IMG/VR virus record: IMGVR_UViG_3300046049_000005
Span: 1 to 64,000 of that record
Source of the DNA: a virus
Reading direction: 5' to 3' (one strand)
Length of the DNA: 64,000 nt
Shown piece by piece: positions 2,949 to 37,612 of the stretch (the first letter of the stretch is position 1; each line of letters starts with the position of its first letter). The notes beneath the pieces are model-generated. The model searched no databases. It worked only from the letters and a program-made list of their open reading frames with translations, and had not been told where the DNA came from. The position numbers were made by a program, and so were the translations under genes.

Positions 2949-3289
2949 AGCAGCAGGGAGTAAGCACACACGCGCGAGGCTCGCTTCGCTCCGCGACTCG
3001 CTTCGCTCGTCGCTTACCGCGACCGCTCCGCGAAGGGACCACCACCTTATCGAGATGGAACACAGGGGGGAACCCTTTGAAGGAATAAACACAGAGGGGG
3101 TTTCCCGAGGAGAATTTTTCCACCAGACTTACCCCGGAATCTATCCCAGTTAGCGGCAAATATTGTCGGAGCCGAAACCCAATTTTCAGTCTGTGAGAGT
3201 CGAAAAATCTATGTCTCTCAGTAATCCCTATTCTCCGATTTTGCCGATACAGACTCTCTATCGGCAGAAATCAGCAGCGCAGCGGGAAG

Positions 3290-4396
3290 CGATAGATATA
3301 AGTACAACCGGGTTGAATTGTATGATAGGTCGGCGCAGGTACGCGGGACATCTCCGGGCACACACGCGGTGTGTTGTGCCTCGGAGGTTCCCCCTCACCC
3401 CCGCTCGCGTAATTAAGTGGGGTCGAGGCGGCCTTTAAGGGCCTTCGGCCCTTGCACGATACCCCTCGAAGAGTTCCTTCGGGAAATGGTAGCCCTTGAC
3501 AGGGCTTGAAATAAGTGGGGCGGTTACAATGCACTCCCCGTTACGGGGAGACGTGTCAGTAGCCGTTGAATATCTAAAAGCGACGTTGGGGGCGTTCCCC
3601 CCTGAAGCCACGTTCGCTAAGTTCATCCCAAAACCCTTCGTGTTTAGTAAGCTTGGTCGCGGTCTTCGGAACAACGCGAACCGAAGCCTTCGGGCTTTGG
3701 GGATGTGGCGTTCCCCGGACACCAATCTTGGCCCTTTGGGTGAAGGACGTTATGACGGAAGTTCTCCCGAACGAACCCTCGGAAGGTGCGAAAGCAGAAG
3801 CGAGGCCGGGAAATAAACCATGTTTGAACGTCTAAGGCCATTGCGGGAGATGCACTTCGGCAGAAGTGAGTACCCCATTAGGGACCCCCCACTTCGGTAC
3901 CTGAAACCTCACGGTGAATGGGACGAAGTGGTCAGGGAACCGCCAGCTTTGGCTTCACGCCGAAGCGGTAGGAAACTCCAGCGTTGGAGTGGACCCGAAG
4001 CGGCGTTTCAGGGAGTTCGGACCCTTTGGCTCCTTGATAGCCCACGAAGGCCGACCGACCCAAGAGGGTCACGATGATACCGTTACGGAGCCAAAATTGC
4101 CACGGAAAACCGGACGTTGAAGCTTTCGGGTAAGGCATCGAGAGATGTTCCGTCGAAGGTGGAGTTACGGGTAATGTCCGAGGGACCGTTGGAGTCCTCC
4201 TTAAACGGAGTAAGCCAACTTACATTTAATCGGACTAAGACAACTGGCGCAACGCAACCTATGAATTGACGAGAGTTCCTCGTCAGTTCAATCCGCGCTT
4301 CAAAGCGAACGGGAGCAACGAAGAGGCCTTCGGCCTCGGTTGTTACGGCGATGATGTAACGGAACTGACAAAGCCAGGAGATAGCGGCGTCGGTTA
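3290..4396 (+). ncRNA. candidate large structured non-coding RNA (class unknown)
   Basis: About 1.1 kb with no acidic ORF; the six-frame ORFs are Arg/Pro/Gly-rich. Dense stable hairpins, many capped by CTTCGG or GAAA: 3437-3453, 3474-3485, 3491-3506, 3534-3550, 3588-3601, 3684-3697, 3777-3805, 3853-3868, 3975-3990, 4268-4284, 4323-4337. Long-range pairings 3889-3895/3925-3931 and 4025-4033/4087-4095. Strand and ends are inferred. Confidence 0.5.
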
Positions 4397-4430
4397 GGAC
4401 CGCAGAGAAATTTATAAAAATCTGCGGTCC
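4397..4430 (+). promoter_or_regulatory. 10-bp inverted repeat enclosing a TATA-like box
   Basis: GGACCGCAGA-gaaatttataaaaa-TCTGCGGTCC. The TTTATA lies in the loop, about 90 nt upstream of the ATG at 4503. This looks like a promoter with an operator-like symmetry. Confidence 0.45.
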
Positions 4431-4502
4431 CCGACCCCGACCCCTTCGGGAGCGGTAAGGGGAGTGACGTTGCTCTACTTAGTGAGCAACACCCCAACTG
4501 CA

Positions 4503-5549
4503 ATGGCTATCGACTTCGCAACTCCGACCGCCGAACGTAGTAACGACAGCAACAGCAACGACGACGGTAGCGAGGCGTCTTTCGACGCGAATGAGTTGGC
4601 GGAGCTTTACATCGAAGCTTCGGAGTACGCCGCAACGCTCGCTGAAATGCGAGAGGCCAACGACATCGGGTGGCCTTCGATGGAGAGTGACCCTTCGATG
4701 GAGCAGTATTCGGACCTTCGGAGTCGTCACGAAGACAGCCACATCGCAAAGCGCCTCACCGTTTTCGCGGTTTGCGCGAAGGGCGAGCTTGGTGAGGAGC
4801 AGAACCACGTTAACGACCATTCCATCTCCGATTACGAAGAGTCGTATCCGGAGCTTCCCAGAACCACCTGGAGTGGTCTAAACGACGACGAGAAGGAGAT
4901 GCTTCGTGACGAAGGCATCGACCTCGAAGAGCTTGGCTTCGATGACGACTTCGATGGGCCGAAGCTTCTCGAAGTCGATGGCGAGCGACTGCCCCTCGGT
5001 CTTGAAGAGGGCGATGTGGAAAAGGCGGAGCGCATCTTCGGTAAGCTTCCCACCGAGCCTTCCGCCGCTACCGAAGATGGCTTCCGCGAGTCTTCCGACC
5101 CCGCCGTTTTCGGTGACGCCGATTCCAGCGAGGAAAGCACCGATAAGGTGGTGGATGATGACAGCGAAGACGACGCCGAGGCTGTCGAAGACAGCGAGGC
5201 GGAGGATGAGCCGGAGCTGGACCTTGCCGAGAATCCCGCCGCCGTTACCGAGGCCAACGCTCTGTACGTTCGAAGCGCCGTGACTGACATCACTTCGAAG
5301 CGTACCCTTCAGCGGATGAAGCGGGTCGAAGAGACGAACGACAACCGGAGCAGCGTTATCGGTCGCATCGAAGAGCGGCTTAACGCTTCGGATGTTGGCA
5401 ACGCCGCAGATACCGTTGACGGTGACAGCGACAGCGACAACAGCGACGACCGCAGCCTTAACGAGACTGAGATGAATCTCGCCACCACCCTTATCGAGAA
5501 CGACATCGTTGATAACCTCGATGAGGCCAAGGCGGAAATTCTCGGCTAA
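4503..5549 (+). CDS. hypothetical highly acidic protein
   Basis: Long D/E-rich ORF. The ORF track starts at a GTG at 4464; the first ATG (MAIDFATP) is at 4503. C-terminal LNETEMNLATTLIENDIV parallels the C-terminus of 694..1404. Confidence 0.75.
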   Translation: MAIDFATPTAERSNDSNSNDDGSEASFDANELAELYIEASEYAATLAEMREANDIGWPSMESDPSMEQYSDLRSRHEDSHIAKRLTVFAVCAKGELGEEQNHVNDHSISDYEESYPELPRTTWSGLNDDEKEMLRDEGIDLEELGFDDDFDGPKLLEVDGERLPLGLEEGDVEKAERIFGKLPTEPSAATEDGFRESSDPAVFGDADSSEESTDKVVDDDSEDDAEAVEDSEAEDEPELDLAENPAAVTEANALYVRSAVTDITSKRTLQRMKRVEETNDNRSSVIGRIEERLNASDVGNAADTVDGDSDSDNSDDRSLNETEMNLATTLIENDIVDNLDEAKAEILG

Positions 5550-5667
5550 TTCGATTCTCCCCTAAGACTTAAGCCGCTGGTTGTTTACTCTTAACCCGTT
5601 GGGTTAGTGACCCCTTCGGTTCGTGACCGACCGGGTTACTTGCGGTGCAGAGCAGAGGTGATGAGAA

Positions 5668-5814
5668 ATGTCAAATCACAAAGACTACGAAAGTGGAATG
5701 GGCCATGTCGAACCGTTCGATGACCGTGCCGAAGCCGAAGACGACCCCCATGTCGTTGACCCCGAAGTAATCGAACCTGACGAGCGATTCAGTGACGAAG
5801 CTCCGTTCTACTGA
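5668..5814 (+). CDS. small acidic protein (48 aa)
   Basis: ATG preceded by GAGGTGA. MSNHKDYESGMGHVEPFDDRAEAEDDPHVVDPEVIEPDERFSDEAPFY. Ends 2 nt before the next start. Below the ORF-track size cut-off. Confidence 0.5.
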   Translation: MSNHKDYESGMGHVEPFDDRAEAEDDPHVVDPEVIEPDERFSDEAPFY

Positions 5815-5816
5815 AA

Positions 5817-6026
5817 ATGAGTGACAACACCATCGAAGATGAGCTGGATGAGGAGAAGCTGGAAGAGATAGAAGACGCGAAGCGAGAGGCGAGGCGAAGC
5901 AAGACGAAGTGGGGCAGTCAGATAACTGACGATGACGACACCGTTGCTGGGGCAACAATCGAGGAGATAATGGCTAACTATGGAGTGACCCCTGAAGAAG
6001 CGAAGGAAATGTATCGAAATCGATGA
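5817..6026 (+). CDS. hypothetical acidic protein
   Basis: 69-aa ORF with an ATGA overlap to the next gene. Confidence 0.6.
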   Translation: MSDNTIEDELDEEKLEEIEDAKREARRSKTKWGSQITDDDDTVAGATIEEIMANYGVTPEEAKEMYRNR

Positions 6027-6220
6027 GTCACGAATACAACGACCCCGACTGGGAGTTCGAGGTCGATACGGTGCAGCGAGGCGGGATTACGAAGCGAACC
6101 AAAGTGAGGCGTCACGGTAGGGTTCACTACCCCGACGTTAGCGACGAGGTTGACGAGAGCGAAAAGCGCGAGCGAAAGGACCGAGGCTTCGACGGTCACG
6201 GAATCCCAACTGGTATCTAA
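6023..6220 (+). CDS. hypothetical protein
   Basis: 65-aa ORF, coupled to neighbours. Confidence 0.55.
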   Translation: MSHEYNDPDWEFEVDTVQRGGITKRTKVRRHGRVHYPDVSDEVDESEKRERKDRGFDGHGIPTGI

Positions 6221-6222
6221 TC

Positions 6223-6375
6223 ATGGATAACAGACAAAGGTTCTTAGACGGCTTAGGCAACGCCCTCGTGAATGCTAAGATGTTCCGAGAGATGGATTCA
6301 CCAGAATCGAGGGCCGCCTTTGGCACAACGTTCCGAGCGGCAGAGAGGGCGTACTACGGAGATGTTTCTCGATGA
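6223..6375 (+). CDS. small hypothetical protein (50 aa)
   Basis: ATG 2 nt after the previous stop. Its stop overlaps the ATG at 6372. MDNRQRFLDGLGNALVNAKMFREMDSPESRAAFGTTFRAAERAYYGDVSR. Confidence 0.45.
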   Translation: MDNRQRFLDGLGNALVNAKMFREMDSPESRAAFGTTFRAAERAYYGDVSR

Positions 6376-6635
6376 AAGAGACACCCAACATCGCGGCGGC
6401 AGAGGGACCGGACGAAGAAGTGCGACTGAAGAGCCTTCTTGCCTCAATGTTTCACGGTCGCATCGACAGCTTCGAGTTCAAAGATGTGACTGTGAGGCGG
6501 TGCGTCGATTCAATTGAGGTGGTTGTTGATTACGAAGGAACGGTCGGGGGTAGGCTCTATATCCCCTCTACAACCGTTCAGTTCGCCTATGAGTGGCTCG
6601 AAGAGAAGAACGAAATCTATGGCGACTGGCAATGA
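6372..6635 (+). CDS. hypothetical protein
   Basis: 87-aa acidic ORF. Confidence 0.6.
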   Translation: MKETPNIAAAEGPDEEVRLKSLLASMFHGRIDSFEFKDVTVRRCVDSIEVVVDYEGTVGGRLYIPSTTVQFAYEWLEEKNEIYGDWQ

Positions 6636-6742
6636 GTTATCGACGCTATCGACGGCGACTTCGCCGCAAGGGGTTGCGGTGCGGAGGGAGTCGAGAGGGA
6701 ACCACCACCTTATCGGTTCGGAACATCGGAGGTAGATAATCC

Positions 6743-7006
6743 ATGAAGCTAACAATAGGTGAGAAGTGGCATAAGGTGACAGAGAGTTACGTCGAAGAGC
6801 TGACCGTCGAAGGCATCGCCGTTCTCGATGGTCGAATTGAAAGGGGTGAAGTAGTCCATTCAAACAATGACGAGTTGAAAATCGAAGTGAGAATCATCAA
6901 TAACAACAATGCGCGATTCTTCACGACCGGAATCAGACTGAAGCATCTGGTTCAAGACTGGGAGCGAGGCGAGGCTCCAGTTGAAATGCCGGGGATGCTC
7001 GTTTGA
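6743..7006 (+). CDS. hypothetical protein
   Basis: 87-aa ORF. The 14-mer CCACCACCTTATCG (6702-6715) lies ~30 nt upstream of the ATG. Confidence 0.6.
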   Translation: MKLTIGEKWHKVTESYVEELTVEGIAVLDGRIERGEVVHSNNDELKIEVRIINNNNARFFTTGIRLKHLVQDWERGEAPVEMPGMLV

Positions 7007-7080
7007 TGTTCCTAATCGAAGAAAAGACTTAACTCGCTTCGCGTTAATTGTTAAATAGGGGCGAAACCCCGAAAGGGGTC

Positions 7081-7114
7081 GAGGGGGTGCTGGCCGCTCC
7101 CCTCCTGATGAGCC
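7081..7114 (+). promoter_or_regulatory. leader hairpin plus CCTGATGAGCC box (copy 1)
   Basis: GAGGGG-gtgctggccgct-CCCCTC followed by CCTGATGAGCC. The same box and a covarying hairpin recur at 14066-14095. It lies ~40 nt upstream of the ATG at 7153. Confidence 0.45.
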
Positions 7115-7152
7115 TACGGCTTCATCGGACACAACCTTCCGAGGAAAGACCA

Positions 7153-7647
7153 ATGACACGAAACGACGACGGATTCAACGTAGTCGAAGAGATGCCCCCT
7201 TCGGAGTGGGCGAACTATCGCTTCGATGCCTTCGGTGAGTACATCCACCTCGTTCCCGACCCCGAAGCAGGCGAGCTTCGGTGCTACCGTTCGATAAGCG
7301 AGCCGGCAAAGGAGAGCGAGCGAATCAAGACGACCATCGAGAGGGTGAAGTTCACCTTCAACTGGGAGAGAGAAGAAGATAAGCTGAATTACTTCTATCT
7401 CACCGCCCAGAAGGCCGAGTCGTTCCTGACCTTTGTTGACCTCCTTAGCAGGGGTCGAGAGAGTTCGGTCGGCTTCTCGTGGTGGGAAGAAAGTGGGATG
7501 AAAATGATGGAAAGCGAGCGAAGCGGAGTCGAAACGTTGAACCTTCGCTTCACGAAGCCGAACGGAGTCGAGCGACGGATGCAAATTACCTCGGCTTGGC
7601 AGTGTCCGGTTCACAAGATGGCTGGCATCGAAGGTGAGGGATTTTAA
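7153..7647 (+). CDS. hypothetical protein
   Basis: The first ATG (MTRNDDGF...) is chosen over the upstream alternative start at 7048, whose N-terminus covers the structured leader. The 19 nt around the ATG are identical to those at 8093. Confidence 0.65.
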   Translation: MTRNDDGFNVVEEMPPSEWANYRFDAFGEYIHLVPDPEAGELRCYRSISEPAKESERIKTTIERVKFTFNWEREEDKLNYFYLTAQKAESFLTFVDLLSRGRESSVGFSWWEESGMKMMESERSGVETLNLRFTKPNGVERRMQITSAWQCPVHKMAGIEGEGF

Positions 7648-8087
7648 TGGAAGACTCAATTCCCGAAGAGCGAATCATTGAGGCGTACAGGGCGGCCCTT
7701 CGGTACGGCCCGGAGCCGTTTGATAATGAACCGAGGGCGAAGCACGTGACGACTTCGAAGATGTTCGATTTCTTGATGATGATGAAAGATTCGGACGTAT
7801 TCACCAGTAGTGCTTACCACAAAGCAGGACAGGTCGGTGTAGATGTTTGCTGTGTGGATTGGATGCAGGAGATAGCCGAAGAAACTGGCGACCTTCAAGA
7901 GTTCATCGAATCCCTGCTCGATGGGTATGGTGAAGGCCGCGAAGTCTGGTACGTCTATGAGACAAATGCGGGCGACGAAAAGGCCGGACCCTTCTCGAAT
8001 AAGGAAAACGCAGTTCGGAGTTCTGGAATGTTTCAGGCCGATAAGGGGGAGAAGCATCATATCGTGAAGCGATACGAAGACGAGTGA
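7647..8087 (+). CDS. hypothetical acidic protein
   Basis: 146-aa ORF whose start overlaps the previous stop. Confidence 0.7.
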   Translation: MEDSIPEERIIEAYRAALRYGPEPFDNEPRAKHVTTSKMFDFLMMMKDSDVFTSSAYHKAGQVGVDVCCVDWMQEIAEETGDLQEFIESLLDGYGEGREVWYVYETNAGDEKAGPFSNKENAVRSSGMFQADKGEKHHIVKRYEDE

Positions 8088-8092
8088 TTACA

Positions 8093-8365
8093 ATGACACG
8101 AAACGACGAAGCGGAACGTCCGATAGAGGTAACGTACAACGCAACCATCAGGTTCGATTCAACGAAGGTGGGGCAGTCGGGGGTGGACGAGGAAGAGGCG
8201 CTGCGTGTTCTGAAACAGCGAATCAGGCGAAACCCAACCGGGGCCGGCGTGTTCTCGGTCCTTCGAGGCTCGACCGAAGCCGATGGCGGCGAAGTCGAAG
8301 ACCCCGGTGAGTTCGAGGCCGGACCGCTAACGAAGTCCGTTGAGGAGAGTAACAGCCATGACTGA
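8093..8365 (+). CDS. hypothetical protein
   Basis: MTRNDEAERP... ATG at 8093. Shares CAATGACACGAAACGACGA with 7151-7169. Confidence 0.6.
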   Translation: MTRNDEAERPIEVTYNATIRFDSTKVGQSGVDEEEALRVLKQRIRRNPTGAGVFSVLRGSTEADGGEVEDPGEFEAGPLTKSVEESNSHD

Positions 8366-8618
8366 AACGCAAACCATCGAACGATACGCGCCAGACCGCG
8401 ACGACCTCCCCGAAGCTCTTCAGGAGCTTGATGACGAGCAGTTCGTGAAGGCCATTCTCGATTATCAGTCCGGAGGGGTTGACTACTCCGTTCTGCTTCG
8501 AGAAGGGTTTCGGGTTCAGCAGATGCGAGTCTTCTGGCTCCGCGAGCTTCGGGATGAATGGCGCTGGGTAGATGACAGCAGCGGCGAAGAGTCGTTCGTC
8601 CTGCTGAAGCACCGCTAA
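8358..8618 (+). CDS. hypothetical protein
   Basis: ATG at 8358 (MTETQTIERY) overlaps the previous stop. Acidic. Confidence 0.6.
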   Translation: MTETQTIERYAPDRDDLPEALQELDDEQFVKAILDYQSGGVDYSVLLREGFRVQQMRVFWLRELRDEWRWVDDSSGEESFVLLKHR

Positions 8619-8627
8619 GTAGCTACA

Positions 8628-8795
8628 ATGAGCGAAGAAAGCAACAGCGACGACGGCGGCGAGGCATCTCCACCCCTTATCGAGGCAGAACCTCGCGGAG
8701 CTACCGATGAAGAAGTCCAAAAATCGGTGGAGAACGCCGAGGAGATGGAGTCCAAGAACACCTTTCGGACTTGGCTTCAGTGGTTAAGGAATTAA
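8628..8795 (+). CDS. small acidic protein (55 aa)
   Basis: MSEESNSDDGGEASPPLIEAEPRG... Fills the gap in the gene array. Below the ORF-track cut-off. Confidence 0.45.
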   Translation: MSEESNSDDGGEASPPLIEAEPRGATDEEVQKSVENAEEMESKNTFRTWLQWLRN

Positions 8796-8813
8796 GGACA
8801 GAAGAATAGAGTC

Positions 8814-8930
8814 ATGAACGAACCCGTAGACTACCTCACATTCGAAGAGCGTGTGGAAATGAAGCGAGTAACGGCCACCATCGAGGCGATGGTCGAACCG
8901 ACCGTTGAAGACGCGACTGACCTACTATGA
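8814..8930 (+). CDS. small hypothetical protein (38 aa)
   Basis: MNEPVDYLTFEERVEMKRVTATIEAMVEPTVEDATDLL. ATGA overlap with the next ORF. Confidence 0.35.
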   Translation: MNEPVDYLTFEERVEMKRVTATIEAMVEPTVEDATDLL

Positions 8931-9106
8931 GTGAACAAAAAGTTGTGGCCTATGCCTTCACGGTAACACCAGTATTGGACGACAGAAACATCGAAGCTGC
9001 TGACCCGTTTGAGAGGGTCATGTTCGAAAATCCTAACGAGAACTACGGCCATTTAGATGGCTTCGAAGTTAGTAACGTTAGGGAACTGACGGAAATTCAA
9101 CAGTAA
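8927..9106 (+). CDS. small hypothetical protein (59 aa)
   Basis: MSEQKVVAYAFTVTPVLDDRNIEAADPFERVMFENPNENYGHLDGFEVSNVRELTEIQQ. Ends 5 nt before the 9112 start. Confidence 0.45.
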   Translation: MSEQKVVAYAFTVTPVLDDRNIEAADPFERVMFENPNENYGHLDGFEVSNVRELTEIQQ

Positions 9107-9111
9107 TTACA

Positions 9112-11934
9112 ATGGCTTCGCAAGAACTTCCGACAATCGAGGATAGTACCGATAACGGCGCTGATGTGAAAAGCGCCGAAGAGAAGTGGCGTGACGTTAG
9201 CGTCATCGACAATACGGGCAACGCTACGGTTCGAGAGTTCGATGCCGCGAGTGACGACCACCCCCTCGTTCAGTACATGGGGTCGAAGCATCTGAAGACG
9301 GACATTCAGGGTGGCGGCGAGTTCGTCAGCGAAGAGATTTACGAGGGCGATTATGCCTTCGTTCGGGAGTGGCTTCAGAACCAGGAGACGGCTTGCATAC
9401 GGCGATGCAAGATGATAGTCGAACTTAGCGACGAGCATCCCGATGGTTGGCTCACAATGACGATGTGGGTCGATTCCAATACCGGAGATACCGTTCTCGG
9501 TCCCGACGAGAACCAAGCGGTTCTTGCCGAATACGACGACGTTTCCGCTGCTGACATTCGGAAAACAGAGATTCCGAGGCCCATCGATGACGTGATGGAG
9601 GCCGCAAAGTCCCTCGGATACGACCCCACTATTGAGTGGGACGTGTATCTTGACGAGCGTAAGATAGTCACCGAAGATAACGGCATCGGCATGACTCCCG
9701 AGGAGTTCGTGGAGGGCTTCAAGTCCCCTTTTAGTTCAGGTTCGGGTGTTGACGGTGAAACCGGAGGTAACTTCGGTATCGGCAGCAACTCGGTCGAGAA
9801 GGTCCACGGTGCCGAAGGCTCGGTCTGTGTGACGACTCTTTCTGCCCGTCCCGGTGACTGGGAAGGCTTCACGGGGTACTCTTACAGGGGTGGTGTCACC
9901 GCTGTCGATGGCGAGAAGCGCGAGGAACCCGGCACCTTTTTCGAGATTCCCGTTTGCGATGACTTCGACCTCGATAATCTCCAAGAGCAAATCGAGACGT
10001 ATACCGAGATGCTTCGGGTCCCCGTCAAATACGCTGAACACAACGCTGGGGTTCAGCCCGTTGACGAGGAATATGAATCTACACGATTCATCGATGAACA
10101 CGACAACCCACCGATAGTCATCGACCGACCCGGCGAGTTCACCCTTGTTGCCGGTCCCGACGTTTACGATGACAGTTTCAGGTCCGACGATGATAATACG
10201 TATCTGGTTTCGATGCCGATTGACCGCAACACGTCGGCCCGAATCAGCACCTTCTGGAATATTGTGATTCAGATTCACGACGAGCAGGGCCGAATTGTCA
10301 GCGGTCCGAATCGTGGCCGATACCACAACAACGGTTCGGTCTACCTCACCGGTGAGAACATCGAGAAGGTGGACGACTTCCAGCCCGACGACGTTGCTTT
10401 GCCTGTCCCAACGGGGGACCGTGACCGTCTCGCAAGCAACTCCGAATCCAAGGAGTTCTTCTATTACATTCAGGATGTAGTCAAGGAGCGAGAGATTTCT
10501 AAGGCCGCTAAGATAGCCAAGCGTATGAAGCACGCCGACCACGCCGCAGATGTCATAAAGGGCAATAGCGGCAAGTGGCGGCTCTTCACGAAGATGATTG
10601 ACTATCACGGTTCACGCCGTGTTACTGATTGCAAACAAAATTTCCGCGATTTCATCAAGGACCAGGACACCTTCCCTGACTTCAGCAGGGAAAAGATAGA
10701 CGAGATGTACGAGCTGTTTCGGTCGATTGAGGTATGTCACAAAGGCCCCCGCCGTTCCAATAAGAAGAGCGAACGACGACAGGCCACTCTTGGCGACCTC
10801 TTCGCTAAGGCGGACCCAGATACGGTCTACATGGCGGCCTCGACCGGCGGTAAGTTCACTGAACGCTTCCGTGTTGCCGACAAAACACACGAAGAATATG
10901 CCGTTGTAGTCGTTGATGGTGCAAGGCGCTATGACGAATACGGTGAAGCGTTCGGATTCGAGGTTCTGAAGGACGTTCCCCTCACCCGAGATGAAGACCA
11001 CGACTACGATATTCCGAATCAAATTCACAAGAGAAATAGCCAGAAGCGTCAGAGTAGCACCAGTAACGAGAAGCTGAAGCTGCGTACCGGTTACGATAGC
11101 TCCGCAATCGACCTTCGGTTGAGCATTGACAGAGTTCAGGACCTCTTAGAGAGTGGCGGAGGTTTCGACGGCCATTCAAAGTTGGTGCTGTTCCCTCGGG
11201 GCGGTGACAGAGAGAACATCAGCGACCACTACGACGTAGCAGACCACGCCGCGATTGCTTCGGTGTCGGTTAGCGAGTACGAACAGTTGGCCGACTACGA
11301 TAACGTGATGACCTTTGATGAGTTCGAAGAGTGGTCCCGCACCGCCCTTATCGCTACCGAAGATGGAGCGATGACCCCCGAAGAACTCGTCAATGATGAC
11401 CGAATGGTCGTTCTCGCCTACCGCACATGCCCCGAAGGTGGGACGGTAGTGAAGCTTTTATCTGACAGACACGAGAGGCTTCGGGAGTTCTACGCTGAAG
11501 ATGTCCGCGACCAGTTGGACTGGGCCGCCCGTCTCGATGGCTACGACGGCGGCTACGGCGGCGACGACGTGGGTAACGTTCCCGACGACGAGAAGGATGA
11601 CACCCTCTTTGCCGTTGCCTGTGAAACCGTCCTAAATCGAGCAGAGTGGGCGTTCTCGGAGCTTCGCTTCAACAGTAGGGATGTCCTCGGACTCAAACTT
11701 GAGGGCGGTACATACGGCTACAAGACGCCGTGTGAATGGATTTCGCTTGACGGGGATAAGGAAACCTATCAACTGAAGGTAGACACCCCGAAGTGGGATA
11801 ACGACAGCGAAGTCTACGACATCTTCCCTCGTAGTCGTCAAAGCACTACTGGACAGGTCTATCTCGGCCTTCATGACCGAGGAATAGACCCAACTGAGGT
11901 CGATGATGTTCGTGACGAAATAGCACAGGATTAA
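9112..11934 (+). CDS. Hsp90/HtpG-like GHKL-family ATPase domain protein (940 aa)
   Basis: N-box-like FVREWLQNQETACIRR, G1 box EDNGIGMTPEEF and G2 box GGNFGIGSNS appear in the order and spacing typical of the Bergerat ATP-binding fold. The remaining ~700 aa have no motif I recognise. Confidence 0.7.
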   Translation: MASQELPTIEDSTDNGADVKSAEEKWRDVSVIDNTGNATVREFDAASDDHPLVQYMGSKHLKTDIQGGGEFVSEEIYEGDYAFVREWLQNQETACIRRCKMIVELSDEHPDGWLTMTMWVDSNTGDTVLGPDENQAVLAEYDDVSAADIRKTEIPRPIDDVMEAAKSLGYDPTIEWDVYLDERKIVTEDNGIGMTPEEFVEGFKSPFSSGSGVDGETGGNFGIGSNSVEKVHGAEGSVCVTTLSARPGDWEGFTGYSYRGGVTAVDGEKREEPGTFFEIPVCDDFDLDNLQEQIETYTEMLRVPVKYAEHNAGVQPVDEEYESTRFIDEHDNPPIVIDRPGEFTLVAGPDVYDDSFRSDDDNTYLVSMPIDRNTSARISTFWNIVIQIHDEQGRIVSGPNRGRYHNNGSVYLTGENIEKVDDFQPDDVALPVPTGDRDRLASNSESKEFFYYIQDVVKEREISKAAKIAKRMKHADHAADVIKGNSGKWRLFTKMIDYHGSRRVTDCKQNFRDFIKDQDTFPDFSREKIDEMYELFRSIEVCHKGPRRSNKKSERRQATLGDLFAKADPDTVYMAASTGGKFTERFRVADKTHEEYAVVVVDGARRYDEYGEAFGFEVLKDVPLTRDEDHDYDIPNQIHKRNSQKRQSSTSNEKLKLRTGYDSSAIDLRLSIDRVQDLLESGGGFDGHSKLVLFPRGGDRENISDHYDVADHAAIASVSVSEYEQLADYDNVMTFDEFEEWSRTALIATEDGAMTPEELVNDDRMVVLAYRTCPEGGTVVKLLSDRHERLREFYAEDVRDQLDWAARLDGYDGGYGGDDVGNVPDDEKDDTLFAVACETVLNRAEWAFSELRFNSRDVLGLKLEGGTYGYKTPCEWISLDGDKETYQLKVDTPKWDNDSEVYDIFPRSRQSTTGQVYLGLHDRGIDPTEVDDVRDEIAQD

Positions 11935-11936
11935 CC

Positions 11937-12053
11937 ATGAGTATCGACTTTCCCGACCCCGAGACGTTTGGTGAATCGGAGCCGCGACCGAGCGAGCGTA
12001 TCGATGAAGACAATTACCATTCCTTAGAGGAGTGGGAGGATAAAAATGAGTAA
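11937..12053 (+). CDS. small acidic protein (38 aa)
   Basis: MSIDFPDPETFGESEPRPSERIDEDNYHSLEEWEDKNE. Starts 2 nt after the previous stop and overlaps the next start. Confidence 0.4.
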   Translation: MSIDFPDPETFGESEPRPSERIDEDNYHSLEEWEDKNE

Positions 12054-12270
12054 CAAAGAAAGACCAATTGTGATAGGCGACGAAGTGGTGTACTCTAAGT
12101 GTAGTTGTGGAAAAGTAAACAAGTATCGACTAACGGGGGTAGCAACAGTTGCAGTGAAAAAGGAGAAAGTTGCTCTACTGTGCATGAATAAGGAATGTGA
12201 CAGATGTATAGAATTGCCAGAAGAGTTGAGTTCGTCACTTGAGGATGCCGCTAAAGAGGTTATGGAATAG
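12046..12270 (+). CDS. small zinc-ribbon-like protein
   Basis: 74 aa with CSCG...CMNKECDRC. Noticeably lower GC than its neighbours. Confidence 0.55.
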   Translation: MSNKERPIVIGDEVVYSKCSCGKVNKYRLTGVATVAVKKEKVALLCMNKECDRCIELPEELSSSLEDAAKEVME

Positions 12271-12272
12271 CA

Positions 12273-12965
12273 ATGAGGGTACTTGAGTCAAACGCAACGA
12301 ACTTTCTGGTTCGTAACGAAGACGGAAGTATCACCACCAAAACCCGCGACTCAGACCTGAATAAGTTGTTGTTCGGTCACAATCTCTACGGCCTTATCGA
12401 GGAAGGCTCTTCGGTGTGGACCAATTCGGGTTCCGAATCTGAACCGAAGGTTACGCTCATTCCTGATGATGAAGCCAAATCCTATACGTTACGTCTCGAT
12501 AATGCCCCGGACCTGACCCTCGGCCCGCACTACAAGACCGACCTTATCGAGGCTCTGGCCGCGGTCTACGAACAGCACAACGCCGAAAGTGTCGCTCCGC
12601 TCCTTTCGCTTTACGACGATGTTCGGGAGAACATGATTCGCAAAGAGGTACTGGAACCATTCTCCAGGGTCTTCAGCGATAAGGTGGAGGTGAGGGACGA
12701 CGGGTGGTTCATCAACGGTCATCTTCTCCTTACCTTCGAAGGCGATTTTTTCCATCCCAACACTACAAGCCGAGAGCGAAGCGGTGGAAATGTCACTTCG
12801 TATCAGAGTCAGATGCAAGCGTATTCGGTGGACATCTCGGAAGGCGCCGCAGATATGAGCCGCGACGTAACGCTCAACGGTGAGAGCTTTCGCCTTACTG
12901 ACACGGAGATGGAGTTCCTGGGGAAGCTGGTGTGGTCTATCGAGAATACCCCCGACCGTAGATGA
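12273..12965 (+). CDS. hypothetical protein
   Basis: 230-aa ORF with acidic composition. Confidence 0.7.
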   Translation: MRVLESNATNFLVRNEDGSITTKTRDSDLNKLLFGHNLYGLIEEGSSVWTNSGSESEPKVTLIPDDEAKSYTLRLDNAPDLTLGPHYKTDLIEALAAVYEQHNAESVAPLLSLYDDVRENMIRKEVLEPFSRVFSDKVEVRDDGWFINGHLLLTFEGDFFHPNTTSRERSGGNVTSYQSQMQAYSVDISEGAADMSRDVTLNGESFRLTDTEMEFLGKLVWSIENTPDRR

Positions 12966-13000
12966 ATCGTAAGAGTTAACTCCTCGGAGTTCGATTCTTA

Positions 13001-13040
13001 GGATGAATGGGCCGCGGCGAGGTTCGATTCCTCCCCATCC
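13001..13040 (+). ncRNA. tRNA-like minihelix element (subfamily A, copy 1)
   Basis: GGATG-aatgggccgcggc-GAGG-TTCGATT-CCTC-cc-CATCC: a closing 5-bp stem plus a T-arm-like hairpin with a TTCGAnT loop. No D or anticodon arm. Starts 36 nt after a stop. Confidence 0.55.
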
Positions 13041-13093
13041 TACTTCAGCGCTATCCCCGGCGTGATGATAGAAATAAGGGACACAACCAAACC

Positions 13094-13987
13094 ATGACGG
13101 ATTACGTAATCCAAGACGAAGACGGCACTGTGGTAGAGCGGGGCTTCAATAGTGGCGAAGACGCCACCATCAGAGCCTACCAGATGTCGAATAGTTGCAA
13201 CTATAGTGGAGCGTACTCTGCTGTGGAGGTTGAACAGAACGACGAAACAACCGACGATTCCAACAACACCATGAGCTACGATTTCATCCAGACCGGCGAC
13301 GACAGCACCGATAACGAACAGCAGTTCAACGAGGTCGGCTCGATGTGGGCCCTCGGGGACCACACCACGGCCGACGAAAGCGACCGCTCCGCGCTCAGTC
13401 AGGCCATCAACGACACCCTTCGGGAGCTTGATGATGACGTTGACGATGAGATGGCCGCGGTCCTTCAGGACGCCTCGGAGATGGTTCAGGATACCCATGT
13501 TAGTCGCTTCGAGTGTCCCGTCGAAGCCTGTGGCCTCGGCCACTCCCATTCGGACCACAAGCATGACATTCGCTCCGGGTTCGGCGTTACCGATGCCTTC
13601 GCGGAGCAGATGGAGGGGTGTCCCTACTGCCATTGTGGGGTCAACGAACTGTCGATGCTGATGGAGTTCTATCCCTACATCAACGAGCGCGTTTTCACGG
13701 ACTACGACTACAGCGGCGTTACAGCGGTAGAGCCTTCGGCTCTCGAAGACATCTACCGACGCTACACGCAGGATTCGGAGGGCTTCAGAGTGGCCGTGGC
13801 GAAGGTTGCCGAGGAGCGCGGCCTCTCTTCGTCTCTCGTCGTTCCCGCCGAATATCGGGACAGTATTGAAGAGTTCTTCGACCTTCGTCAGCGTATCGAT
13901 AACGCCGCTGATTCGGCTCCCATCGCCACCGAGATGCGGAACCTGATTTCGGAGCGCCGCGACGAGCTTATCGAGGCTACCTCCTAA
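13094..13987 (+). CDS. hypothetical acidic protein with a Cys/His cluster
   Basis: ATG at 13094 (MTDYVIQDEDG) is preferred to the alternative start at 13007, which would cover the tRNA-like element. Motifs FECPVEACGLGHSHSDHKHD and GCPYCHCG. Confidence 0.7.
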   Translation: MTDYVIQDEDGTVVERGFNSGEDATIRAYQMSNSCNYSGAYSAVEVEQNDETTDDSNNTMSYDFIQTGDDSTDNEQQFNEVGSMWALGDHTTADESDRSALSQAINDTLRELDDDVDDEMAAVLQDASEMVQDTHVSRFECPVEACGLGHSHSDHKHDIRSGFGVTDAFAEQMEGCPYCHCGVNELSMLMEFYPYINERVFTDYDYSGVTAVEPSALEDIYRRYTQDSEGFRVAVAKVAEERGLSSSLVVPAEYRDSIEEFFDLRQRIDNAADSAPIATEMRNLISERRDELIEATS

Positions 13988-14065
13988 GCGCCACGACTCA
14001 AAGAGTCTTTTCACGGAAGGTTGAATCCTTGAAGCCGAAGGGCGAAAAGGGGGGCGCCCTCTTCG

Positions 14066-14095
14066 GGAAGGGTTGGTCGCCTTCCCCTGATGAGC
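14066..14095 (+). promoter_or_regulatory. leader hairpin plus CCTGATGAGCC box (copy 2)
   Basis: GGGAAGG-ttggtcg-CCTTCCC followed by CCTGATGAGCC, ~25 nt upstream of the ATG at 14117. The stem covaries with 7081-7104 and 24492-24511. Confidence 0.45.
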
Positions 14096-14116
14096 CAAGA
14101 CCGCTCAAAATTAACA

Positions 14117-14257
14117 ATGTCTGCTAACGATGCCAACAGTGCGGGGGGTACCGCCAAGAAATCGTATTCAGAGCGCGTTCGAGGTCGGATGGAAACTGAA
14201 GACCTTGGAGCGATAATGTCAAGATTCTATGATGCTGTCAGTTGGAGGTCTGACTAA
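14117..14257 (+). CDS. small hypothetical protein (46 aa)
   Basis: MSANDANSAGGTAKKSYSERVRGRMETEDLGAIMSRFYDAVSWRSD. Its stop overlaps the next ATG by 1 nt. Confidence 0.4.
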   Translation: MSANDANSAGGTAKKSYSERVRGRMETEDLGAIMSRFYDAVSWRSD

Positions 14258-14514
14258 TGAGCGAAATATCTCATGTCGGTATGTTCTATGAAACTCGTCG
14301 CGCCGTCCATGTAAGGGACTCTGACCCCACCAAGAGTCCCCATACGGAATTAAACTCGGTGCCAACAAAAGCCGAGATTCGGTATGCAGACCAGGAGAAT
14401 AGAGTGATAGATTGTGAAGAGTTCGAAGCTCCCAATGGTAAGGGGTATGAAACTGCCAAATTCTTAATCAGCAGAGCGATGCTGGATAGCGATGCCGTTG
14501 TCGTGGAGCTATGA
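14257..14514 (+). CDS. hypothetical protein
   Basis: 85-aa ORF with an ATGA overlap to the next gene. Confidence 0.6.
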   Translation: MSEISHVGMFYETRRAVHVRDSDPTKSPHTELNSVPTKAEIRYADQENRVIDCEEFEAPNGKGYETAKFLISRAMLDSDAVVVEL

Positions 14515-14939
14515 AGACACTCCCGATAGACAGAAGTAGGGTCTTTCGGCCGTCCGACTATCCGAAGGACCCGAACGAGTATGTCCCTTCAGTCCACTTC
14601 GGACAGCGATTCAAGGAGCAGCAGCGGTTTCTGAACGGCGACGTTATCGAGACGACCCTCGAAGAGGGTGACATCCGCAGCAACGGCGATGGCTGCGCCT
14701 GTTTCCGGAAGGAATGGGGTGAAGGAGTCGCATACTACATCATTGCGGGCTACCACGAGAAGGGGTACAGGGTGCTGGTAACGGGGTGGCCGCACCTTCA
14801 CCATCGTCGGTCTGCCCTCAAATCGGGACAATGGCTCCCGTCCGAACTGGACCAGATTCAAGAATTGAACGACCGCTATAAGGAGCGGTTCGAAGACAAA
14901 TATCCCGTGTATAGTACGTGGTTGAAGCCTCGAAGTTAG
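14511..14939 (+). CDS. hypothetical protein
   Basis: 142-aa ORF. Confidence 0.65.
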   Translation: MKTLPIDRSRVFRPSDYPKDPNEYVPSVHFGQRFKEQQRFLNGDVIETTLEEGDIRSNGDGCACFRKEWGEGVAYYIIAGYHEKGYRVLVTGWPHLHHRRSALKSGQWLPSELDQIQELNDRYKERFEDKYPVYSTWLKPRS

Positions 14940-14977
14940 AGTGAATGGACGGCAGGAGGTTCGATTCCTCCTCACTC
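14939..14977 (+). ncRNA. tRNA-like minihelix element (subfamily A, copy 2)
   Basis: GAGTG-aatggacggc-AGGAGG-TTCGATT-CCTCCT-CACTC. The closing stem differs from copy 1 but stays complementary. It starts at the last base of the stop codon at 14937-14939. Confidence 0.55.
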
Positions 14978-14994
14978 CATGAGGTAACGATGAA

Positions 14995-15003
14995 AAGACT
15001 TAA
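14995..15003 (+). promoter_or_regulatory. AAGACTTAA promoter-like box
   Basis: AAAAGACTTAACT. The TTAA lies ~27 nt upstream of the ATG at 15028, the spacing expected for a leaderless haloarchaeal mRNA. The same box recurs at 5564, 7024, 22927 and 44266, with related boxes at 23096, 23111, 2385 and 2514. Confidence 0.45.
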
Positions 15004-15027
15004 CTTGCCGGAGGTTAATTGTTTGGT

Positions 15028-15996
15028 ATGACCTATTCTCGAAAAGAGTGTACGGAAGCACTACAAGAAGCAACAGAATTGCTTGGCAAATCGCCAACCC
15101 AAGATGAATATATCAATCTTGATATTTCCCCATCTCACACTACGATTAGTCGTATCTTTGGCTCTTGGAACAAAGCCAAGGAAGCCGCTGACCTTGAAAC
15201 AATCAACCGAAGAGAATACAGTAAACAAGAATGTATTGATTCGCTCCGCCGTGCGGCAGAACTGCTTGGAAAGTCACCGAGCCATGACCGATTCAATGAG
15301 TTAGACTTGAAGCCGTCTGCTAATCATATCAATGATGTTTTTGATTCGTGGGCCAATGCCAAAGAAGAGGCGGGCCTTCAACGAGGAGATATAAAGCCAG
15401 TAAATACTGAATTTTTCCGCAAACCTCTCACCAATGAGGCCGCTTACTGGCTTGGAATGCTATGGGGAGATGGTGGTATCACTAAAAGGGGGGAAGAGAA
15501 GTATGAAATGTCTTTCGGCCTTTCTGAAAAGGACGCTGGTCACGTTCGAGCTTTTAAAAATGCTATCGAAAGTGAACACTCTCTTGTGAATAGCGGTGGA
15601 AACGAATGTGTAAGAATTTATATCTCTCGGGGCGATTTCCTTCAACCTCTCCTTGATTATGGCTTCAAGCCGGGAAAGACTACTTCAAGTTCCTTGCCCC
15701 CACTCAGCGAACCGAGCAAACGGCGTGATTTCATCCGCGGTCTAAACGATGCTGATGGGTATGTCGAGAAGACTGGAGTTCAAATTGCTGGTGTATCTAA
15801 AAAGCGGTTTGAAAAGCTCGAAAATTGGATACCATACAAAACATCAATCTACAAATACTGCCGAGAAGACCGACAAAACATCTTCACTCTCGTTACAATG
15901 AGCAGTGACTACGAAGAAGTGATAAACTGGATGTACCCCAACGGCCACGATACAAGCCCCGCCCTTGCTCGAAAACTCCAAGCGGCGCTCGACTAA
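15028..15996 (+). CDS. free-standing LAGLIDADG homing endonuclease with two N-terminal homing-endonuclease-associated repeats
   Basis: Tandem repeats ...KECTEALQEATELLGKSPTQDEY...IFGSWNKAKEAA and ...KQECIDSLRRAAELLGKSPSHDRF...VFDSWANAKEEA. LAGLIDADG motifs YWLGMLWGDGG and FIRGLNDADGYV. Clearly lower GC than the flanks. Confidence 0.8.
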   Translation: MTYSRKECTEALQEATELLGKSPTQDEYINLDISPSHTTISRIFGSWNKAKEAADLETINRREYSKQECIDSLRRAAELLGKSPSHDRFNELDLKPSANHINDVFDSWANAKEEAGLQRGDIKPVNTEFFRKPLTNEAAYWLGMLWGDGGITKRGEEKYEMSFGLSEKDAGHVRAFKNAIESEHSLVNSGGNECVRIYISRGDFLQPLLDYGFKPGKTTSSSLPPLSEPSKRRDFIRGLNDADGYVEKTGVQIAGVSKKRFEKLENWIPYKTSIYKYCREDRQNIFTLVTMSSDYEEVINWMYPNGHDTSPALARKLQAALD

Positions 15997-16054: not shown

Positions 16055-16121
16055 CATTGAGCGCGACAGTCCCGACGCGCAATGACACAGTAAAATTCGG
16101 GACACAACTTTCCGATTAACC

Positions 16122-20393: not shown

Positions 20394-20440
20394 TGGGCCA
20401 ACTCGGATTTGAACCGAGGACCTCCCGCGAGAGGCCTTCA
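20394..20440 (-). other. tRNA 3'-half-like fragment, candidate attP core
   Basis: The minus strand reads ...CCTCTCGCGGGAGG-T-CCTCGG-TTCAAAT-CCGAG-TTGGCCC-A: variable-arm-like hairpin, T-arm, 3' acceptor strand and discriminator. No matching 5' acceptor, D arm or anticodon arm. It lies immediately upstream of the integrase. Confidence 0.5.
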
Positions 20441-20514
20441 GGCGTCCGAAATCAGCCGGAACGCTCACATCGAAGGGATTGGGACTGAGGTGGCGCATCC
20501 TCGGTTCGCGCACC

Positions 20515-21537
20515 ATGCAACCCAACAACAATCTCGAACCCATCGGACCCGAAGAAGCATTAGAAAAATACCTCCAGCATCGGGAGAACGAAGGCGTCTC
20601 AGAGAAAACACTACAATCCCACCGCTACCGACTTCAGCATTTCGTGAAGTGGTGCCTCGATAACGGGCTGGACTCTCTCCACCACTTATCGAGACGAGAT
20701 TTTCAGGACTTCCGGCATTGGCGAAAACAAGATGGGGGGTTGAACAACGTGACATGGCATACGCAGATGACAACGCTTCGAGTCTTCGTGAAGTGGGCCG
20801 AAAGCTACGAAGCAATCGAACACGGCCTTCACGAAAAGATACGGATTCCGAAGCTCGACCCCAACGAAGACGCTCGGGACACCAAGTTCAGTCAAGAACG
20901 AGCAAGCGCCATTCTCGAACATCTCTCAGAGTTCGAATACGCGAGTCAGCAACACACGCTGTTCGCTCTACTATGGCATACAGGGATGCGAATAGGGTCG
21001 GCGCGAGCAATCGACCTTAGAGACATCCATATGGACGAGCAGTACGTCGAGATTCATCACCGACCCCAATCGGACACACCGTTGAAGAACAAGTCTAACG
21101 GCGAACGTCCCATCTCTCTCGCCCTTCCCGAGGTGGAGCTTCTGAGGGACTACATCGATAAGCGCCGGCCTTCGGTGACAGACGAATACGGTCGGAAACC
21201 GCTGTTCGCAACAGAGAACGGACGGGCGCACCGGAATACGATGCGAAGCTGGGTCTACAAGCTGGCCCGCCCCTGTGAATACAGCGGAGACTGTCCCCAC
21301 GGAAGGAACATAGAAGAGTGCGAAGCGGCGAGGCTCAGCGACAAAGCAAGCAAATGCCCCTCGTCGTTCTCGCCGCACACCATCAGGCGTTCCTCGATTA
21401 CGCAATGGCTTTCCGAAGACGTGCCGAGCGAAGCCGTGAGTGACAGGATGAACGCCAACGAAGAGGCTATCGACAAGCACTACGACAAACGCACCGAGAA
21501 GGGCAAGATGGAGCAACGCAAAGACTACTTCTTGTAA
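20515..21537 (+). CDS. int: tyrosine recombinase/integrase
   Basis: N-terminal core-binding-like region (TLQSHRYRLQHFVKW). Catalytic-domain signatures TGMRIGSARAI (Arg), SPHTIRRSS (H-x-x-R) and IDKHYDKR (Tyr). ATG at 20515. Confidence 0.85.
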   Translation: MQPNNNLEPIGPEEALEKYLQHRENEGVSEKTLQSHRYRLQHFVKWCLDNGLDSLHHLSRRDFQDFRHWRKQDGGLNNVTWHTQMTTLRVFVKWAESYEAIEHGLHEKIRIPKLDPNEDARDTKFSQERASAILEHLSEFEYASQQHTLFALLWHTGMRIGSARAIDLRDIHMDEQYVEIHHRPQSDTPLKNKSNGERPISLALPEVELLRDYIDKRRPSVTDEYGRKPLFATENGRAHRNTMRSWVYKLARPCEYSGDCPHGRNIEECEAARLSDKASKCPSSFSPHTIRRSSITQWLSEDVPSEAVSDRMNANEEAIDKHYDKRTEKGKMEQRKDYFL

Positions 21538-24514: not shown

Positions 24515-24588
24515 GCCGAGGTAGCTCAAATGGTAGCAGCGACTGTCTGTTACACAGTAGGTTCGAGGTTCGAGTCCTCGCCTCGGCG
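24515..24588 (+). tRNA. tRNA-Asn (anticodon GTT)
   Basis: Manual fold. Acceptor GCCGAGG/CCTCGGC. D arm GCT-/-AGC with one mismatch. Anticodon stem ACTGT/ACAGT with loop CTGTTAC. 5-nt variable loop. T arm CGAGG-TTCGAGT-CCTCG. Discriminator G. 74 nt. Confidence 0.85.
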
Positions 24589-24743
24589 CTTACCGAGAAC
24601 ACGACTCAGAGACGTGAATCTCCTTAACGGGAGAGATACAATGTGGCCTGCAACGGTCGCTCTCGGCTTCCACGGTTCGGCGTCACAACCGACCGTGGCC
24701 TTTCGGTCAGGAAGTTCGGTACTATGCTGTCTCAAATTTAGAA

Positions 24744-25130: not shown

Positions 25131-25204
25131 TCTCGTAGCAAAGCGGCCAAAAGCGCCGGGCTTTGAACCCGGAGATACCGTGAGTTCGAATCTCACCGGG
25201 ACTA
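25129..25204 (+). tRNA. tRNA-Gln-like (anticodon TTG), atypical
   Basis: Acceptor AGTCTCG/CGGGACT. Anticodon stem CCGGG/CCCGG with loop CTTTGAA. T arm GTGAG-TTCGAAT-CTCAC. Discriminator A. The D stem has only ~2 bp and the variable loop is 7 nt. Its 5' end overlaps the TAG stop of 24744..25130. Confidence 0.6.
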
Positions 25205-25274
25205 TTGGCCGCGCAAGTTGGCGTTGAGCGCGGAGCCTCGCCCAAATGACGCCACCTCCGTTTATGTTCGACCA

Positions 25275-25442: not shown

Positions 25443-25498
25443 TTGCATCTGTGAGCCGTGCGGCGACTTCTGTCAGTGTAGCTGCCACGACAGAGAGA

Positions 25499-37523: not shown

Positions 37524-37537
37524 TTCTCTCTAAGTTA

Positions 37538-37575: not shown

Positions 37576-37612
37576 CCTCCGCTCACGGTAGAGCGGGACA
37601 CGACCTATCATC

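Follow-up and report, generated by a model that had tools for sequence, protein, structure and literature searches.

A fold of about 40 nt that resembles the top half of a tRNA recurs between the genes of a virus of haloarchaea, and we conclude that this minihelix is very probably a selected RNA structure of the sense strand. Each copy lies on the sense strand of the flanking genes, between a stop codon and the next start codon. Because the stems vary and still pair, G-U wobbles fit one strand only and the loops are conserved, the pattern is the signature of an RNA and not of a protein-binding site.

The window, by which we mean the whole 64,000-nt stretch analysed here (IMG/VR record IMGVR_UViG_3300046049_000005, positions 1 to 64,000), was assigned to a tailed virus of haloarchaea on protein similarity only. 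Its HSP90-like protein (940 aa) shares 38% identity with proteins of HSTV-2, HRTV-7 and HCTV-6 (Hafunaviridae, genus Mincapvirus); the phage collection held no near-identical DNA, and an initial protein-based search for relatives gave no match. The sequencing runs that contain window DNA are halite metagenomes, and a look for RNA runs containing it returned none; transcriptomes of HRTV-DL1 were set aside as uninformative, that virus being a member of a different family. Genes occupy the + strand up to about 44 kb and the - strand beyond 45 kb, and ARAGORN and Rfam (RF00005) identify two true tRNA genes, Asn at 24515-24589 and Gln at 25128-25205. A family B DNA polymerase gene (39216-42269, +) is split by an intein with a LAGLIDADG domain and is followed, two genes on, by an RNA ligase gene (PF09414; 42862-43863, +). 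Directly upstream of a tyrosine integrase gene (20479-21537, +), the opposite strand carries a lone T-arm, CTCGG-TTCAAAT-CCGAG (20395-20438, -), probably an attP site made of a partial tRNA, of the kind described for HF2.

Structure and coordinates of the minihelices

The window contains four minihelices and a longer, fifth element:

13001-13040 (+): minihelix A1; 5-bp closing stem, linker AATGGGCCGC, 6-bp T-like stem, T-loop TTCGATT; 41.4 bits
14939-14977 (+): minihelix A2; GAGTG / AATGGACGGC / AGGAGG-TTCGATT-CCTCCT / CACTC; 39.7 bits
16016-16054 (+): minihelix B1; CCCGC / TCCGGTAGTA / CAACGG-TTCGACT-CCGTTG / GCGGG; 42.1 bits
37538-37575 (+): minihelix B2; CCTGT / TTGGAGAAA / CAACGG-TTCGACT-CCGTTG / ACAGG; 31.7 bits
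25873-25917 (+): longer C-type variant; closing stem CCAGA...TCTGG, extra hairpin GGGTAATCAGGCCC, T-arm GGGG-TTCGACT-CCCC

A1 and A2, present where the preliminary description had placed them, share one architecture: a 5-bp closing stem stacked on a 6-bp T-like stem, a canonical T-loop and a linker opening A-N-N-G-G. In A1, GGATG (13001-13005) is followed by the linker (13006-13015), the stem strand G13016 G13017 G13019 A13020 G13021 G13022 with C13018 bulged, the loop TTCGATT (13023-13029) and the 3' strands CCTCCC (13030-13035) and CATCC (13036-13040); pairing can be extended to 12999/13042. The fold first drawn for A1 holds except for its 4-bp T stem: two C lie between CCTC and CATCC and bring the stem to 6 bp, with the C13018 bulge assigned by RNAalifold. 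In the RNAalifold structure of the A-type copies, the sixth T-stem pair joins the last linker base to the base that had looked like a 3' bulge. Positions 12982-13000, originally counted as part of the minihelix, are instead the right arm of a promoter-box palindrome (12970-13000). In A2, the successive segments are GAGTG (14939-14943), linker (14944-14953), AGGAGG (14954-14959), TTCGATT (14960-14966), CCTCCT (14967-14972) and CACTC (14973-14977), and the element opens on the final G of the stop codon TAG of the gene upstream. The distances to the flanking genes are as first reported: the gap around A1 runs from a stop codon ending at 12965 to the ATG at 13094, that around A2 from the TAG ending at 14939 to the ATG at 15028. 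The closing stems of B1 and B2 covary.

How close is this fold to a tRNA? The linker, just 9-12 nt long across the elements, leaves no D or anticodon arm, and the closing stem is mostly 5 bp, sometimes 6-7 bp, where a canonical acceptor has 7 bp, a discriminator and CCA; none of the viral copies encodes CCA. The T-arm is canonical in its 7-nt loop and G53-C61 closure, with a stem of 6 bp instead of 5. As in t-elements, an acceptor-like stem is coaxial with a T-arm and the structure is conserved. Mimicry of a tRNA top half, as suggested at the outset, is the natural reading of the canonical T-loop, the coaxial stems and the linker GG. ARAGORN and Rfam made no call at any of the five window elements, and no tRNA match appeared there even at E<=10.

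The recurrence exceeds chance. The T-arm word GGTTCGATTCC, with at most one mismatch, has 11 matches against 2.2 expected, and a scan of the window for the whole architecture returned four copies, whereas 200 dinucleotide shuffles averaged 0.125 and never gave more than 1. Trained on 18 copies, a covariance model matched the window at full length exactly at A1, A2, B1 and B2, all on the + strand in the early/middle region, and additionally matched two T-arms, those of the fifth element and of tRNA-Asn. Single-sequence folding energies are unexceptional (z-scores -0.24 and -1.35), so the case rests on recurrence of the pattern and on covariation.

Covariation and distribution among viruses

A protein 71-75% identical to the neighbouring 434-aa one is encoded on two IMG/VR contigs. 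Both carry A-type copies, as do a third IMG/VR contig and one metagenome contig (exact DNA pattern search). Across the A-type copies the T-like stems differ (GAGG/CCTC, AAGGG/CCCTT, AGGGG/CCCCT, GTCGG/CCGAC, AGCAG/CTGCT, CGGGG/CCCCG), as do the closing stems (GGATG/CATCC, GAGTG/CACTC, GGGTG/CACTC, GGGTA/TACCC, GGGTG/CACCC), and the loop TTCGAYT and the linker are constant. Selection on structure, argued at first from two copies, is borne out here: the relatives retain both stems through compensatory changes, and pairing is not lost. Given seven A-type copies and no structure, RNAalifold recovered 11 pairs, none of them broken and 8 with compensatory changes. HF2-group orthologues form a compensatory series in the closing stem, from GCTCCG/CGGAGC to GCTCTG/CAGAGC and GCCCCG/CGGGGC. 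A model-fitted alignment that comprises 24 distinct sequences has a covariation score of 0.554, against 0.157 for shuffled alignments (none of 500 as high) and at most 0.24 for slid partners; the T-like stem is 99% paired, with up to four pair types per position. The closing stem is under-counted in this alignment (72.5% paired) because the register of its 5' strand shifts with linker length.

Among the 34 parsed copies, for which the scanner had a 5-bp closing stem as its selection criterion, the linker is ANNGG in 30 (bacterial-phage copies included), the T-loop is TTCGAYT or TTCGAGT in 33 and TTCGAGC in one, and the loop-closing G-C pair is present in all 34; the sixth T-stem pair is standard in 29 of 30. 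The unbiased evidence for pairing is that from the HF2-group orthologue changes, the model-fitted covariation and RNAalifold. G-U wobbles are present only when the copies are read on the sense strand.

Outside the window and its closest relatives, copies were located as follows:

HF2, 2906-2944: minihelix HF2a
HF2, 4375-4414: minihelix HF2b
More than 40 HF1/HF2-group records: copies at the two HF2 sites, unannotated
HSTV-2, 56117-56159 (-): one copy
SH1, an unrelated icosahedral virus, 27707-27744 (-), equal to L213 1208-1245: one copy, between ORF 54 and ORF 53
HCIV-1 (putative identity), L102 7003-7042 (-): one copy
Streptomyces phage Alsaber (NC_054677), L042 6627-11201 (-), within the matched stretch 36857-48803: eight 40-nt copies

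Halovirus genomes carry 1-4 copies each. The minihelices of SH1 and putative HCIV-1 are near-identical (CCCCG / AGCGGCGGCC / CGTGG-TTCGACT-CCACG-G / CGGGG), and since icosahedral sphaerolipoviruses have no kinship with the tailed viruses, the presence of the element in them points to horizontal spread. In Alsaber, the linker is A-N-N-GGCAsACAC, the loop is TTCGAGT and the stems covary fully; each copy lies between a stop codon and the next ribosome-binding site and is followed by a ACTGGGCAAC-like sequence. No conserved upstream promoter sequence was found at the Streptomyces phage copies, and phiC31, checked for this version of the element, has none. A sigma54-like reading of the Alsaber linker was rejected by eye, its spacing being unfit. 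Further copies with AATGG or TTTGG linkers were seen in low-GC contigs (22-46% GC): L204 955-993 (-), which has a bacterial-type ribosome-binding site downstream of the minihelix, L206 1294-1335, L207 1423-1464, L178 2489-2527 and L135 3362-3402 (-). Because the patterns that retrieved the phage and low-GC copies fix parts of the motif, these copies may be homologous to the haloviral family or could have converged with it.

In 185,579 cellular genomes, the A-type pattern had 0 matches and the HF2a/SH1-type pattern gave mostly chance matches in high-GC bacteria. Two HF2a/SH1-type matches in a Planctomycetota MAG (L231 3580-3605 and 3764-3789) have a 7-bp stem ending in an encoded ACCA, and a chromosomal match with a closing stem in Halorubellus litoreus (L239 7463-7487) may lie within a provirus.

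B2 lies in a non-homologous patch and its orthologue was not found among five relatives; at this locus the closest relative, whose nuclease is 85% identical, has the same AGGACTTAATTC box followed by two plain GC-rich hairpins and no minihelix (L208 2390-2500). The C-type variant has a counterpart in HSTV-2 at 61211-61252 (L008 41212-41253, -); the two have the extra hairpin GGGTAATCAGGCCC in common, and their closing stems are different yet complementary. A third HSTV-2 element (L008 ~25480-25560, -) has an anticodon-arm-like hairpin and no D arm.

The promoter and leader module and the HF2 transcripts

In hafunaviruses the minihelix belongs to a module whose order is promoter box (AAGACTTAAC-like), minihelix, second hairpin, G(G/T)GACAC motif and start codon. 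The A-type consensus reads GTAAGACTTAAC, inverted-repeat arm GAGTCTTAG, minihelix, hairpin GCGCC-N6-GGCGC and AAATGGTGGGACACAACCTATG. The elements, for which punctuation of transcripts had been suggested initially as one possible role, are not free-standing marks; they are embedded in this conserved promoter and leader. Around A1 and A2 the module comprises:

12970-13000 (+): promoter-like palindrome upstream of A1; box AAGAGTTAAC at 12971-12980, right arm ending TCTTA just before A1
13078-13087 (+): GGGACACAAC motif, 16 nt ahead of ATG 13094
14910-14916 (+): TATA-like box TATAGTA, 23-29 nt before A2, within the 3' end of the upstream gene
14995-15004 (+): AAGACTTAAC promoter box after A2, 24 nt ahead of the homing-endonuclease start at 15028

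The palindrome at 12970-13000 can fold as a 13-bp hairpin, aligns with GTAAGACTTAAC...GAGTCTTAG of the relatives and is like the alpha motif of HF2 promoters; the sequence TAAGACTT...AAGTCTTA of the palindrome is kept among relatives. The upstream box matches the HF2 promoter alpha motif CTAAAGACTTAGAA. TATAGTA (14910-14916) aligns with the AAGACTTAAC box of relatives and is a putative promoter. Of the parts of the HF2 class I repeat, an alpha-like box and a gamma-like TTAG(A/G)GTGA can be recognised in the A-type module; a separate beta box is missing. Across the + strand of the window, AAGA(C/G)T(T/C)A boxes occur at 2385, 2514, 5564, 7024, 12971, 14995, 22927, 44266 and 44614, mostly between longer ORFs, and, matching the HF2 alpha motif, they are probably the early/middle promoter set of the virus.

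Downstream of the minihelices, GGGACACRAC has four exact copies in the window, at 13078, 16099 and 37595 (+) and at 24461 (-). Three of them follow A1, B1 and B2 and lie 16-23 nt before start codons: GGGACACAAC at 16099-16108 precedes ATG 16122 past B1, and GGGACACGAC at 37595-37604 precedes ATG 37613 past B2. In the relatives and in HF2, G(G/T)GACAC stands directly before ATG, the HF2 form being GTGACACC-N-ATG. ORF 13007-13987, whose start falls inside A1, was rejected as coding from that position: the relatives begin at the ATG after the GGGACAC motif and the stems covary.

Where would transcription start? The spacing from box to minihelix varies between copies. In B1, B2 and HF2a, an AT-rich box starts 18 nt before the closing stem, and from this spacing their start site is predicted about 9 nt inside the element, as at the mapped HF2 5' end described below (T-4384). 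For A-type copies, the start within the class I repeat, TTA[G]AGTGA, predicts initiation at the first stem base, and direct homology with HF2b would place it in the linker.

Beyond another such box, at 7024, we noticed a candidate type II hammerhead ribozyme (7059-7119, +) that begins 25 nt past that AAGACTTAAC box. It scores 28.1 bits against an Rfam threshold of 37 (E = 5e-4 in a 201-nt search), with the cores CUGAUGAG, GAAAC and GUC all intact. The annotated type II hammerhead of HF2 (10292-10359) is likewise on the sense strand, just upstream of a helicase gene.

Published transcript data for HF2 bear on the elements directly. A 5' end was mapped at 4384 by primer extension (PMC8707807); this end, T-4384, is the sole experimental 5' end at any member of the family. 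Within HF2b it falls on the bracketed G of the linker sequence AGT[G]GCGG, 10 nt past the start of the closing stem and at neither border. Fragments 2880-2937 and 4343-4385 were cloned as promoter candidates (PMC8707807); the one includes most of HF2a, the other no more of HF2b than the 5' strand of its closing stem and the beginning of its linker. Transcript F1 was traced by RT-PCR from ~1855 to a cDNA primer at 2937-2924, and transcript F2, with its primer at 3073-3093, from 3073 to 15629, and PCR005, in the first gene, was negative on F2 cDNA (PMC8707807). The F1 primer falls within the T-arm of HF2a; an RNA that includes the upstream gene and this T-arm therefore exists. Given the negative PCR005 and the position of the F2 primer, the F1/F2 boundary spans HF2a. 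F2 crosses HF2b, so that any cleavage there would at best be partial, and if T-4384 is a true start, the transcripts that begin at it have no 5' strand. Thus, the published HF2 data fit simple punctuation only partly. The long (18-kb) HF2 mRNA after promoter IR3 is headed by two true tRNAs, so tRNA-mRNA co-transcripts exist in the HF2 group. Neither PMC8707807 nor its supplement mentions a minihelix downstream of the class I repeats.

Proposed function and its alternatives

What might the minihelix do? We propose, at somewhat less than an even chance, that it is a viral t-element, a handle for RNase P and tRNase Z. The acceptor-like closing stem stacks on the T-like stem-loop, with the short A-N-N-G-G linker standing for the D and anticodon arms; the linker GG may act as G18-G19 do in docking on the T-loop. 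The element is transcribed on the sense strand within the intergenic promoter/leader modules of early/middle operons. In our proposal, host RNase P would recognise it and cleave where it begins, and tRNase Z would cleave immediately beyond its 3' edge. Between genes, read-through RNA would thereby be cut apart, which would also fix where the flanking messages end.

We favour the t-element because the stacked helix and the T-loop are what tRNA-processing enzymes read, as the GG may be, and because there is a precedent in Haloferax. The F1/F2 boundary across HF2a and the tRNA-mRNA co-transcript of HF2 also speak for it. RNase P and tRNase Z of Haloferax volcanii process tRNA-like t-elements in vivo (PMC4326828), and tRNase Z generates the 5' end of Haloferax 5S rRNA via a t-element (PMC4326828, PMC7714728). 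Several features speak against it: the stacked helix is mostly 11 bp (5+6), where a tRNA has 12 bp (7+5), the copies encode no CCA, F2 runs through HF2b, and T-4384 lies within the linker and not at a border. At A2, since an RNase P cut would fall at the stem border, the upstream stop codon would lose its last base. Hoelzle et al. reportedly found in 2012 that most predicted cellular tRNA-like elements in Haloferax were uncleaved in vitro.

The main rival, which we consider unlikely while placing it above the other alternatives, is a leader that is not cleaved: transcription would start at or inside the element, the folded 5'-proximal RNA would stabilise the message or tune its translation, and the likeness to tRNA would serve a binding factor, not a nuclease. 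It agrees with the promoter boxes that precede A1, the relatives' copies, HF2a and HF2b by 22-31 nt, with T-4384 inside the HF2 element, with the A-type start predicted at the first closing-stem base by analogy with the class I motif, and with the hammerhead candidate after another such box; the two ordinary hairpins that take the place of B2 past the same box in L208 suggest that leader structures are interchangeable. A start in the linker, however, would preclude the covarying closing stem in those RNAs, the Streptomyces phage copies keep the fold without a conserved upstream promoter sequence, and the invariant T-loop and GG exceed the needs of a plain stabilising hairpin. It is improbable that the element is instead a decoy, a sponge or a substrate for some tRNA-binding protein other than the end-processing nucleases, such as a T-loop modification enzyme, the CCA-adding enzyme, a tRNA-targeting defence toxin of the host or a viral RNA ligase/repair system. 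The same compact fold does occur in viruses of two realms and a bacterial phage, in several copies per genome, and the window encodes an RNA ligase and HF2 an RtcB, but a decoy would be at odds with the low copy number in haloviruses and would not need the strict intergenic, sense-strand, promoter-linked siting.

A role at the level of DNA, as part of a promoter or operator or as a hot spot for recombination or insertion at module boundaries, seems quite improbable for the minihelix itself, whose stems alter freely yet stay complementary, whose G-U wobbles fit one strand and whose loops, not stems, are conserved. The upstream palindrome may have such a role, its sequence being kept as expected of a protein-binding site; the variability of the A2/B1 region between relatives, with its homing endonuclease, and the location of B2 in a non-homologous patch would also suit a hot spot. 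Among known systems, the promoter-stem-loop cassettes of T4-type phages would come closest. Least credible, and disfavoured, is that the elements are functionless remains of tRNA genes, either pseudogenes in decay or attP fragments. The window does have true tRNA genes, an integrase with an attP-like T-arm is nearby and the C-type variants look intermediate between tRNA and minihelix. Decay, however, would hardly yield the same exact architecture (5-7 bp plus 6 bp, ANNGG linker) with covariation in distant lineages, nor several copies per genome, none of which adjoins the integrase (they lie 5-17 kb from it and differ in their stems), and the A-type pattern is the one without a match in cellular genomes.

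The minihelix family seems to be undescribed so far: Rfam 15 has no family for it, we found no description in the searchable literature, and the GenBank records of viruses that carry it leave it unannotated. In its working it would be of a known kind, that of tRNA-like elements and minihelices, and a distinct, compact, virus-borne variant with a putative function. With more reserve than for the t-element itself, we suggest that it may represent a widespread, unrecognised class of ~40-nt tRNA top-half mimics (closing stem, ANNGG linker, 6-bp stem, T-loop) in two unrelated archaeal-virus realms (Hafunaviridae, Sphaerolipoviridae) and in bacterial phages, serving in early operons as excisable punctuation or as a decoy for tRNA enzymes.

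Known t-elements, namely the upstream element of Haloferax 5S rRNA and engineered t-element-flanked crRNAs (PMC4326828), are likewise non-tRNA sequences with acceptor-like and T-arm parts; the viral element may also share with them a position beside another RNA whose ends RNase P and tRNase Z could define, in a host group that has the enzymes and a proven example. The viral element differs in being smaller (~40 nt, no D or anticodon arm), with a 6-bp T-like stem, a 5-7-bp closing stem and a fixed ANNGG linker, and in being virus-encoded, repeated and tied to promoters; its cleavage is only proposed here. Plant mitochondrial t-elements are further tRNA-like processing signals. Synthetic acceptor/T-arm minihelices, minimal substrates of RNase P, the CCA-adding enzyme and some aminoacyl-tRNA synthetases in vitro, share the coaxial acceptor-T helix and T-loop, whereas the viral ones are natural, have an added linker, no CCA and mostly 11 bp. 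Partial tRNA mimicry also engages tRNA enzymes in the tmRNA domain, the 3' ends of plant RNA viruses and MALAT1 mascRNA. In the tRNA-like domain of tmRNA, which to our knowledge is absent from archaea, a short loop containing GG stands in place of the D arm, as in the viral minihelix. These mimics are terminal domains of large RNAs or full cloverleafs, and none is a 40-nt intergenic element of a DNA virus. PeSL cassettes of T4-type phages are repeated promoter and hairpin modules between early genes, in plastic genome regions; they resemble the viral modules in this repetition, but their hairpin is not tRNA-like. The HF2 class I repeats and T-4384 promoter (PMC8707807), whose alpha and gamma motifs the A-type box AAGACTTA(A/G) and TTAG(A/G)GTGA resemble, were published as DNA promoters, and the fragments 2880-2937 and 4343-4385 overlap the HF2 minihelices.

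If the elements are processed, these viruses would cut their operon transcripts with the tRNA-maturation machinery of the host, a tRNA punctuation like that of mitochondria in DNA viruses of archaea and possibly of bacteria, and intergenic sequence that more than 40 published halovirus genomes conserve without annotation would gain a concrete meaning. Part of the published HF2 promoter map could be re-interpreted, and so minimal a natural fold could be a useful part for RNA engineering in haloarchaea, where t-elements already release guide RNAs.

The gene between A2 and B1 (15028-15996, +) encodes a free-standing LAGLIDADG homing endonuclease with HNH-associated repeats. This slot is variable: in relatives it holds two other small genes and one A-type minihelix.
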